Source: a virus
Strand: one strand, 5' to 3'
DNA: 64,000 bases
Virus record (IMG/VR): IMGVR_UViG_3300045988_159113
Made by a program: the position numbers and the translations under genes. Shown here piece by piece: positions 30,848 through 31,936 of this stretch. The first letter of the stretch is position 1; every line of letters begins with the position of its first letter. The notes under the pieces were generated by a model. It saw only the letters and a list, made by a program, of their open reading frames with translations, did not search any database and was not told the DNA's origin.

Positions 30848-30926
30848 ATTTGGTAGGGGTGTGTAACATTTTTGGTAGGGGTATGTGAAAAATTTGGTAG
30901 GGGTACCGGCAAAAAGTGGTAGGGGT
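30848..30926. repeat. iteron set 1: four TGGTAGGGGT boxes at exact 22-bp spacing
   Basis: Boxes start at 30851, 30873, 30895 and 30917. Confidence 0.8.
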
Positions 30927-30949
30927 TCATCCTGCCACTTTTTGCTTTT
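30909..30949 (+). terminator. hairpin terminator overlapping the fourth iteron
   Basis: GCAAAAAGTGG...CCACTTTTTGC followed by TTTT. Confidence 0.5.
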
Positions 30950-30950
30950 A

Positions 30951-31730
30951 TCACAATAACACATTCGCGAAGTCCTGGTTTTGCCGAATACCGTTCTCGT
31001 TATTGAGGTAATCTTTATTGATAGCCTTTCTGAGCAACGCATTCTCGCGAACTAGGGCTTCGTATTGTTCACGCATCTTACGGATAACGTCTTGATTTTG
31101 AGCTTTGATTTCCAAAAGCTGCTTCTTCAAATCTTCGATATCCTCCGTGTTCTTCTCTATCTGCTCTTCATGCTTTTTGAGCAAGAATACGATAGCCTGA
31201 CCGTAAGCTCTAATGTCATATACTTTTAAAGGTCTACGATCTCCTCCGTATTCAACATAATCTGGCACAGATTGATTGACACACGTGAGGTAGCCTTTAT
31301 TACGCAATGATGTGTTGTAAGAAGCAATGCTACGCCTTGACAATCCTATGTGGTCTGCAAGCTCTTTGTCTGTCATAGATATCTTGCCTGTCTGGCCATC
31401 ATCAAGACGCATGTATTGCTGTATCATTGCAAGATAACCCTTTTCCTCTATACTGAGATTTGGGTTATCCAAAAAGTCATCACTAAACCCCTGAAATGTC
31501 TTGTACTCGTTAAAGTGGTAAATGTTGCGATTATTGCGGCCTTTCGAGATTGCAATATATCCCGCCTTTTCCAAACGATCTACAGCTTCCAGTATGTACT
31601 TGCGGCTTAGGTGTAACTTTTCAGCGATAGTAGCAATTGATACAAACGTCTCGTGAGTTTCCCAGTTCTCATATCTCCTAAGTGTCAGATAGACCACCAC
31701 ATCCTTTGGTTTTATGATATTCGTAAGCAT
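30951..31730 (-). CDS. tandem winged-helix DNA-binding protein (candidate initiator or regulator)
   Basis: Intact 259-aa ORF, the only minus-strand gene in this arm. Two wHTH-like segments (ATIAEKLHLSRKYILEAVDRLEKAGYI; ELADHIGLSRRSIASYNTSLRNKGYL) and a C-terminal coiled coil. Flanked by iterons. Confidence 0.55.
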   Translation of the reverse strand: MLTNIIKPKDVVVYLTLRRYENWETHETFVSIATIAEKLHLSRKYILEAVDRLEKAGYIAISKGRNNRNIYHFNEYKTFQGFSDDFLDNPNLSIEEKGYLAMIQQYMRLDDGQTGKISMTDKELADHIGLSRRSIASYNTSLRNKGYLTCVNQSVPDYVEYGGDRRPLKVYDIRAYGQAIVFLLKKHEEQIEKNTEDIEDLKKQLLEIKAQNQDVIRKMREQYEALVRENALLRKAINKDYLNNENGIRQNQDFANVLL

Positions 31731-31853
31731 ACTTGTTGGTAACTAAACATGTTTTAAATTCTCGTCCATAATAATACAATTTTTATTAATAATGTTAGAA
31801 TCTTTAACAATATTAGTATTTTTTGTTTTATTAATGAATGCAAGAATTTATAG

Positions 31854-31936
31854 GGGGTGTGCAGAAACAGAAACGCAGGTGTGCAAAAATGTGCAGGGGG
31901 GTGTGCAGAAATAGAAACGCCGGTGTGCAAAAATGT
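31854..31936. repeat. iteron set 2: four GGTGTGCA boxes at exact 22-bp spacing (two 42-bp direct repeats)
   Basis: Boxes start at 31856, 31878, 31900 and 31922. Preceded by a very AT-rich stretch of about 120 bp (31735-31850). Confidence 0.8.

Follow-up and report, generated by a model that had tools for sequence, protein, structure and literature searches.

A phased-repeat locus around a winged-helix gene in a large TAG-recoded phage: a candidate plasmid-style replicon cassette

Large phages that recode the TAG stop codon and are related to crAss-like phages are found in the gut, and their origins and initiators are essentially unmapped. One locus of an uncultivated gut phage, in the virus record IMGVR_UViG_3300045988_159113 (IMG/VR), of which a stretch of 64,000 nucleotides was analysed (the window), raises the question of whether such an origin can be recognized from its layout. 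In this locus, a single minus-strand gene, here called rep, encodes a winged-helix protein (Rep1) and lies between two sets of short direct repeats. A first-pass annotation, made from the letters alone, had seen in it a candidate replication origin or control region. The reading favored here, which is held to be probable but far from secure, is that positions 30841-32072 form a plasmid-style replicon cassette consisting of a replication origin and its initiator, probably autoregulated. Upstream of rep follow, in order, an 83-bp spacer of 13% GC, four iterons of class A, two repeats of class T, and a GC-rich element. The elements of the locus are as follows.

30841..30928: downstream repeat set, class E; four 22-bp units with invariant core TGGTAGGGGT (plus strand), ACCCCTACCA (gene strand), and variable spacers
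30909-30923 and 30931-30945, minus strand: hairpin with 15-bp stem and 7-nt loop, 93% complementary, 5 nt past the rep stop
30951..31769, minus strand: Rep1 gene, 272 aa including a TAG read as Gln; an alternative 259-aa product would start from ATG 31730
31299..31337, minus strand: predicted recognition-helix codons of winged helix 2, residues 132-144, SRRSIASYNTSL
31743..31745, minus strand: in-frame TAG, codon 9, at the conserved family Gln of H-x-Q-L-P
31770..31852: AT-rich spacer, 83 bp, 13% GC; candidate DNA-unwinding element and presumably also the rep promoter
31853..31940: upstream repeat set, class A; four 22-bp units with core GGTGTGCA (plus strand), TTTyTGCACACC (gene strand); also a 44-bp unit present twice
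31942..31971: class T repeats; two TAACGTATA, spaced by 21 bp from each other and from the last A unit
31978..32072: GC-rich element, 95 bp, 75% GC (genome about 39%), between the arrays and the divergent gene at 32094

Both repeat sets are present where the first-pass annotation had placed them, with four copies each, as was confirmed by reading the sequence and by pattern searches. TGGTAGGGGT occurs exactly at 30851, 30873, 30895, and 30917, and GGTGTGCA at 31856, 31878, 31900, and 31922; neither has another exact copy in the 64 kb, and exact copies of the longer form TTTYTGCACACC are confined to the upstream array. With up to one mismatch allowed, TGGTAGGGGT has 5 matches in the 64 kb vs 1.2 expected. 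The exact 22-bp phasing of each set is borne out by Tandem Repeats Finder, which assigns period 22 to both arrays and gives the upstream one also period 44 (2 copies, 95% identity), i.e., two alternating kinds of 22-bp unit. The upstream array includes an additional TGTGCA half-site at 31891, and it is prolonged in 21-bp steps by TAACGTATA at 31942 and 31963.

The core TAGGGG(G)TGTG, thought at first to be shared by the two sets, is present in one unit of each, but the conserved cores differ. On the gene strand they are ACCCCTAyCA downstream and TTTyTGC(A/G)CAC upstream, with opposite polarity, and a common core was dropped after per-position profiles had been made. The description of two iteron sets flanking the gene thus holds in that both sets are real, but they belong to different classes, and the downstream one is tied to a paralog, Rep2 (see below). 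Palindromic operators of the lambda type, with one consensus on both sides of the gene, were not found; the units are direct and asymmetric, and their cores differ. A CRISPR-like array was dismissed on inspection, the 22-bp units being without unique spacers of sufficient length.

The relation of the upstream set to Rep1 can be followed in relatives. Twenty-five related loci were compared (numbered with L), with 63-99% identity within the clade and 31-38% identity for five distant loci. In clade loci, the A position is always occupied by phased repeats, the sequence of which differs between loci: TGCGCAC, AACGAGCATC, or ATTTCCCA repeats are found there in relatives, with the 22-bp phase unchanged. 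The class T motif TAACGTATA is invariant among relatives, unlike the A units, and it is kept in L004, L008, L017, L021, L023, L024, and L025. Many short-read contigs stop within the array, which fits a repeat variable between strains. The cores at the A position are distributed as follows.

TTTyTGCACACC: window, 4 copies; L021, 4 copies; L024, at least 2 copies
TTTTTGCGCAC: L004, 4 copies at 22 bp, and 1-2 more beyond
TTTCTGCGCACAC: L001, array cut by the contig end
GAAACGAGCATC: L008, L009, L010, and L023, 2 to 4 copies
AAATTTCCCA: L014, at least 2 copies

The change of repeat is accompanied by a change in the protein. Rep1 of the window and the related protein P0001 are 97% identical, differing at 8 residues, and their iterons are unrelated. 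Four of these 8 differences (R133Q, S134R, A136N, and S137A) fall in the predicted recognition helix of winged helix 2. The helix RRSIAS is found with TGCACACC repeats in the window allele and in L021, and RQRINA with AACGAGCATC repeats in the P0001 loci and in L023, which comes from a different metagenome record; the pairings in L023 and L021 were predicted beforehand and then confirmed. When the window is aligned with L008, the DNA differs in two separate patches: the iterons, with 69 differences in 31850-31949, and 31300-31349 (codons 133-137), with 9 differences vs 1-5 per 50 nt elsewhere in the gene. Because these are two separate patches and not one recombined tract, simple hitch-hiking is unlikely, and coupled selection fits.

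The five distant loci (L026, L028, L029, L031, and L033) follow one plan, having a long intergenic region upstream of the gene with three constant TAAGT(A/T)TAGT repeats and then 3-4 variable repeats in 21-23-bp steps (mostly 21). The variable repeats are TATGCAAT, GGTGCGA, TGCGCA, and AATCGCA; 75-133 bp at 9-16% GC separate the repeats from the gene, and in three of the five loci an inverted copy lies 9-12 bp past the last variable repeat. In most of the five, no other gene shares the strand of the Rep1-family gene. In these distant members, the helix ES(T/C)IR(R/K)C of winged helix 2 goes with GGTGCG(C)A repeats, ESTISRT with TATGCAAT, and EYTVRSC with AATCGCA. The helix SIxTIRxxIxRL of winged helix 1 and the constant TAAGTATAGT repeats are unchanged across them. 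Since winged helix 2 tracks the variable repeats, and winged helix 1 and the constant repeats stay the same, the comparison points to winged helix 1 as the likely reader of the constant repeats (TAACGTATA in the window) and to winged helix 2 as that of the variable iterons. The upstream set is therefore very probably the binding array of Rep1 itself, as predicted from these sequence comparisons.

Directly behind Rep1 in L004 (4836-5195), there is a 119-aa open reading frame (ORF) resembling winged helix 2 alone (…EEKGYLAMIQQYM…ERSIQRYNRSLKKKGYL…), a truncated paralog with a different recognition helix.

Residue numbers of Rep1 domains refer to the 259-aa form. The two winged-helix-like segments and the coiled coil noticed at first are confirmed by Pfam and by two AlphaFold models (pLDDT 69.7 with 8 sequences and 79.9 with 70 sequences), which agree on winged helix 1 (residues 8-73), winged helix 2 (94-153), and a predicted long helix (179-242). 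The N-terminal winged helix matches Pfam HTH_36 (PF13730; 52.8 bits vs a cut-off of 25) and DnaD_N (PF21984; 33.4 bits vs 27, E = 5.5e-8), and the second helix-turn-helix matches HTH_Crp_2 (residues 111-149). Among the family members tested, HTH_36 was matched by 46 of 46 and DnaD_N by 43 of 46. PHROGs 270, 186, 678, and 391 were matched with E = 2.7e-12 to 2e-10, mostly over residues 6-84, and the top matches are annotated as replication initiation protein, DnaD-like helicase loader, and replication initiation O-like.

When the model with pLDDT 79.9 was compared with the Protein Data Bank (PDB) by Foldseek, the first match was 8ac8, a complex of Rep with single-stranded origin DNA, and RepE54-iteron entries made up most of the top 50. 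These matches have probability 1.00 and E = 1e-4 to 1e-3 over about 210 aligned columns, with an rmsd of about 6.3 Å and TM values of 0.43-0.45 by target and 0.37-0.39 by query; the N-terminal domain of staphylococcal RepA (4pql, 4pt7) reaches TM 0.47-0.51. Because the 8ac8 and RepE54 values lie under the usual same-fold line, Rep1 is described only as arranged like RepE in the predicted model, and not as a member of that family. Rep_3 (PF01051) is not among the best 25 of the 36 Pfam families matched by Rep1 at E <= 1, nor among the 25 families most often matched by the 46 family members. A C-terminal domain of the DnaD/DnaB_2 type is not among the listed matches, the C-terminal half being made of the second winged helix and the long helix. 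Comparison with RepA, DnaD, and replisome organizers, which had been proposed as a check, thus gives a predicted arrangement like that of RepE and a DnaD_N match above cut-off, but TM values to RepE below 0.5 and no DnaD/DnaB_2 domain among the listed matches.

The Rep1 family is large and unannotated. It comprises 769 clusters at 50% identity (E <= 1e-3), 81 of them with E <= 1e-30; nearly all members are full length at 230-270 aa, and many are on contigs of 120-196 kb. No homolog was found by tblastn with Rep1 and a distant member among 50,697 phage records, and none among PLSDB plasmids. A nucleotide search of the locus against the same phage records gave no match, a first protein-pattern scan of IMG/VR found nothing, and a scan of GTDB genomes found no relative.

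The DNA between rep and the iterons is suited to melting. The region of the spacer 31770-31852 contains the least stable 100 bp of the window (rank 1 of 63,900), the second least stable DNA being at 17.83-17.92 kb. The very AT-rich stretch of about 120 bp reported before is right when counted from ATG 31730 (122 bp at 19% GC), but from the true start it is 83 bp at 13% GC. Support for an initiator comes from the layout, in which phased repeats, AT-rich spacer, and gene are conserved across the family despite different repeat sequences. A possible course of events is that the recognition helix of winged helix 2 would attach Rep1 to the A iterons, whose spacing of two helical turns would set the bound molecules on one face of the DNA. 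Winged helix 1 may bind the constant T repeats. The complex would then melt the AT-rich spacer, allowing helicase loading, and the Rep1 coiled coil would mediate oligomerization or pairing of arrays. With the rep promoter on one side of the array and the rightward promoter on the other, binding there probably also autoregulates rep. The positions of promoters in the rep region are guesses. A sigma-70 scan was set aside as not meaningful with a likely Bacteroidota host, and the best matches to TAnnTTTG, at 31815 (minus) and 31968 (plus), agree in no more than 5 of 6 positions.

Iteron replicons of plasmids include F ori2 (incB-repE-incC) and P1 oriR (incC-repA-incA), as well as R6K and pPS10 with 22-bp iterons. 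Like these, the locus has a putative initiator with tandem winged helices, 3-7 direct repeats that recur every two helical turns or so next to an AT-rich candidate unwinding region, rep between an upstream candidate origin set and a downstream set, and, in distant relatives, an inverted copy near the promoter; monomeric RepE54-iteron complexes are the best structural matches of Rep1. Iteron origins have at least three direct repeats of about 17-22 bp in helical phase; there are four in each set here, and relatives have 3-6 units at 21-23 bp. Unlike them, Rep1 has no listed Rep_3 match, its N-terminal domain is of HTH_36/DnaD_N type, and about 65 additional residues at its C-terminal end form a coiled coil. 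The flanking sets here differ in class and run in opposite polarity, DnaA boxes are not clustered, and the cassette resides in a phage (genome about 190 kb) rather than a plasmid.

Lambda O, SPP1 G38P, and DnaD-like organizers share with Rep1 an N-terminal winged helix (E = 1e-10 to 1e-12) and repeats adjoining the gene, but the match ends after winged helix 1 and there is no C-terminal domain of O. In lambda and SPP1, the origin is inside the initiator gene, whereas the candidate origin here is upstream of it. In prototypic crAssphage, origins have been predicted beside RepL genes (preprint PMC10983915). The likeness is in a plasmid-type initiator in the early replication arm with the predicted origin directly upstream; the difference is that Rep1 belongs to another protein family, and iterons are not mentioned in that preprint (PMC10983915). 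No publication combining iterons, crAss-like phages, and origin of replication was found in the library of papers searched.

Several points weigh against an origin at this locus. TM values to RepE stay below 0.5, and what Pfam and PHROG match is for the most part a generic winged helix. A PDB profile-to-sequence search likewise returned only generic winged helices, TubR (E = 8.4e-5) and regulators of the MarR type such as AdcR (E = 1.2e-4), i.e., at E of about 1e-4. The association of helix with A vs B repeats comes from few lineages, possibly only two of them independent, and in the near relatives L021, L022, and L024 the E copies are fewer or degenerate, which fits decay over function. The repeats lie between divergent transcription units, where a control role and an origin role are inseparable by sequence alone. 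DnaA boxes, which many though not all iteron origins contain, form no cluster, with one 8-of-9 match at 31465 inside rep and a total in the window equal to chance. Another initiator could serve the phage, since relatives carry RepL nearby: in L008 and L009, RepL genes are 1.7 kb from Rep1, and the window has only a 42-residue RepL-like remnant (29407-29532).

The cumulative GC skew, suggested before as a check, shows no inflection at the locus. Its minimum in the 64 kb (of about 190 kb) is at 17-18 kb, with no turn at 31 kb, and this weighs only weakly against an origin because skew here follows gene direction. The AT-rich intergenic region 17711-17918, at the switch from leftward late to rightward genes and at the skew minimum, is an alternative origin candidate; no repeats were seen in it on reading. 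The origin-initiator layout proposed for 30841-32072 is supported in part, by the DnaD_N and PHROG matches, the RepE structural matches, the meltable spacer, the conserved architecture, and the co-variation of helix and repeat, but not by a turn in skew.

The downstream set has to be considered separately. In class E, the core is conserved and the spacers are variable (28 distinct units from 9 loci, per-position profiles), and the class is retained behind Rep1 in L008-L011. It is also found with Rep2, a paralog that shares 40% identity with Rep1 in L020. There, five E units in 22-23-bp steps stand directly upstream of an AT-rich stretch and Rep2, and one unit is behind it; in L010 the order is Rep1, hairpin, E units, Rep2. 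E-type units lie upstream of Rep2' in L023 and L025, and L025 has also a hairpin and four E units behind Rep2'. Because the class flanks Rep2, and Rep2 was not found in the 64-kb window by tblastn (a Rep2 scan of IMG/VR gave no further contig), the E set of the window would be either an orphan from cassette exchange or a retained control set, and as the latter it may act in trans, like incA of P1 or incC of F. Binding of class E by winged helix 1 of Rep1 was considered and is unlikely; E units occur with Rep2 in loci that have no Rep1, and several Rep1 loci are without E.

That the downstream set alone is a non-functional relic of a Rep2 cassette lost or replaced via iteron recombination, only the upstream set being active, is given somewhat less than an even chance. 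E units stand on both sides of Rep2 in L020, L010, and L025, where recombination between units would delete it, and near relatives keep only 1-3 E units, some of them degenerate (ACCCCTACTA, ACTCCTACCA, and ACCACTACCA). The converse case, orphan A and B units without Rep1, is seen in L025 and L017: ahead of Rep2', a single array combines classes T, A, B, C, D, and E, and its B/C junction fits a deletion at a shared GCATCGA. Composite arrays of five or six repeat classes are found in some relatives. A relic is at odds with the four E cores of the window, which are all perfect though the spacers differ from those of L008, suggesting core selection or ongoing conversion. The module of hairpin and E units is moreover kept behind both Rep1 and Rep2' genes, and with 64 kb of about 190 kb seen, Rep2 may lie elsewhere in the genome.

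The hairpin past the rep stop, the 5' arm of which (30909-30923, plus strand) overlaps the fourth E unit, has T-rich sequence next to it on both strands and is likely a two-way terminator for convergent genes. It is kept in L008, L010, L021, L022, L024, and L025, and was not called by a simple terminator scan.

Rep1 could also be an autoregulated transcription factor with no role in replication, the repeats being its operators and balancing leftward rep against the rightward early operon (32094 onward), much as in an immunity or early-switch region; as the main rival reading this is unlikely, though it has to be taken seriously. As the first-pass annotation had noticed, rep is the lone minus-strand gene of this arm, and here and in most relatives it faces a divergent operon across the array, so that the arrays lie between two presumed promoters. 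The inverted copy ending the array in distant relatives is typical of a dimer operator, but plasmid initiators also autoregulate via an inverted repeat, and such operator features are compatible with an origin. Most sequence matches in Pfam, NCBIfam, and PDB are regulators (MarR, Rrf2, TrmB, and AdcR), and the skew signal of an origin is missing at the locus; on the other hand, DnaD_N is above cut-off and the top structural matches are initiators of the RepE type. A pure regulator also leaves aside that the direct repeats are in helical phase beside the most meltable DNA of the window, and the 64 kb hold no other sites, hence no regulon.

Partition centromeres are, like iteron arrays, phased direct repeats adjoining the gene of their binding protein. 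That the repeats are such a site, with Rep1 a TubR-like binder segregating an episomal phage, is highly improbable: TubR of pBtoxis is the best solved-structure profile match (4aso; also 3m8e and 6tey), and there is a weak match to AspA, an archaeal partition adaptor, but the TubR match spans a single generic winged helix, the very AT-rich spacer and the co-varying iterons upstream suit an origin better, and the partition alternative named at first finds no ParA, ParM, or TubZ-type NTPase in the neighboring genes (24.4-40.8 kb) or in the called genes of related loci. Systems of the TubR/tubC type, and other centromere systems with winged-helix or ribbon-helix-helix binders, resemble the locus in having a winged helix and short phased direct-repeat arrays next to its own gene; Rep1 differs in being about 2.5 times larger, with a second winged helix, a coiled coil, no nearby NTPase, and a very AT-rich spacer in its conserved layout. 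Plasmid-like lifestyles have been proposed for crAss-type phages (preprint PMC10983915).

Returning to the initiator-like gene of the replicon cassette, its start differs from the one first called. The gene had been given 259 aa from 31730, but its most probable start is ATG 31769, with an in-frame TAG at 31743-31745 and a product of 272 aa. The 39 nt upstream of ATG 31730 read ATG GAC GAG AAT TTA AAA CAT GTT TAG TTA CCA ACA AGT (MDENLKHV*LPTS), and the consensus of the Rep1 family starts M..QHVQLP. For the conserved Gln, 9 of the 10 clade loci scanned use TAG; L022 has CAG, and five distant relatives have CAA. The predicted protein P0003 (L004) has Q at the TAG position. On the grounds of the family consensus start and this codon comparison, Rep1 is assigned to 30951-31769 with TAG read as Gln. 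The same occurs in the paralogs, with TAG within the conserved motif AIIQQYM of Rep2 in L020 and at FK*LP of Rep2' in L023. The features bearing on read-through are as follows.

15045..15121, minus strand: suppressor tRNA, anticodon CTA (ARAGORN and Rfam)
Rep1 N-terminus: peptide expected from TAG read-through, MDENLKHVQLPTS

According to TAG counts per gene, rep is the sole gene of the right arm with an internal TAG. With TAG taken as sense, the genes of the left arm (1-22 kb) become long ORFs with 5-16 TAGs each, and alignments have Gln at these TAGs. The suppressor tRNA is needed for reading the rep TAG and the 5-16 TAGs in each late gene. The codon-9 TAG would thus make full-length Rep1 dependent on the phage suppressor tRNA, and translation from the ATG five codons past the TAG could give a shorter form.

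The source phage has a genome of about 190 kb, translates TAG as Gln, and is a distant relative of the crAss-like phages, as follows from the suppressor tRNA, the TAG-rich left arm, the kinship of the terminase, and the contigs of 192-197 kb that carry near-identical copies of the Rep1 gene. Its large terminase is 40-46% identical to those of unannotated human-faecal phages and about 25% to those of crAss-like phages. The kind of phage agrees with that described in bioRxiv 10.1101/2021.08.26.457843.

The layout itself is known; what is new is the Rep1 family, the switch of helix and iteron, arrays that are composite or orphaned, and a start gated by TAG. For the large TAG-recoded phages, the cassette is a concrete and testable candidate origin, and the pair of alleles, four residues vs one iteron class, is a natural specificity switch suited to the study of how initiator-origin recognition evolves. 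A single TAG in an otherwise standard-code early gene offers a clean case for recoding as an expression timer. If the orphan and composite arrays are functional, they would point to competition or cooperation at the level of replication between co-circulating phage strains. More speculatively, and with rather poor prospects of being right, the arrays could be specificity "barcodes" of a diversifying initiator family, in which coupled changes of helix and iteron create incompatibility types and orphan iterons let a phage titrate, or be replicated by, the initiators of co-infecting relatives. Genomes would then collect orphan iterons, such as the up to six classes of L025 and L017 and class E of the window, a plasmid-like network of incompatibility or cross-replication would exist among gut phages, and the codon-9 TAG would couple the full-length initiator to suppressor tRNA expression.

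The GC-rich element next to the class T repeats is conserved in L004, L008, L017, L020, L021, and L023, the last of which has two copies, the second being partial and preceding a second array. It contains the perfect hairpin CTCACGC-GTTA-GCGTGAG, and a different structured element in L026 and L033 shares CTCACGCTGA. A structured RNA was rejected, the fold being on neither strand better than that of shuffled sequences (z = -0.8 and -1.4) and the element too invariant for covariation; Rfam has no match at the locus, this element included, at the gathering threshold or at E <= 1.

Some further observations concern the neighborhood. Paralogous beta-solenoid (hexapeptide-repeat) genes are found at 29688-30116, 32094-32576, 35412-37060, and 39118-39975. 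The two small ones (29688-30116 and 32094-32576; 31% identical) flank the rep cassette, which looks inserted into a series of paralog units because of these small paralogs on either side. At 29130-29610, there are four dispersed repeats, 100-180 bp apart, each with GTyCGTGAGrATAG and a T-arm-like GGTTCGAwTCC; ARAGORN and Rfam found no tRNA among them. The RepL-like remnant overlaps these repeats, and the corresponding place in L008 is downstream of its RepL genes. The early arm encodes a phage sigma-70 family factor with regions 2 and 4 (40097-40774, plus strand), which has a homolog near the rep cassette in L004 (811-1395). The large terminase is in two minus-strand ORFs about 165 nt apart (3113-4441 and 4606-5592), corresponding to the C-terminal and N-terminal halves of phrog_6681, for which an intron, a frameshift, or a truly split gene are possible. 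The stretch 47927-61255 holds a tandem series of no fewer than 13 paralogous genes (about 290-350 aa, 24-46% mutual identity); two representatives searched against PHROGs matched no family.

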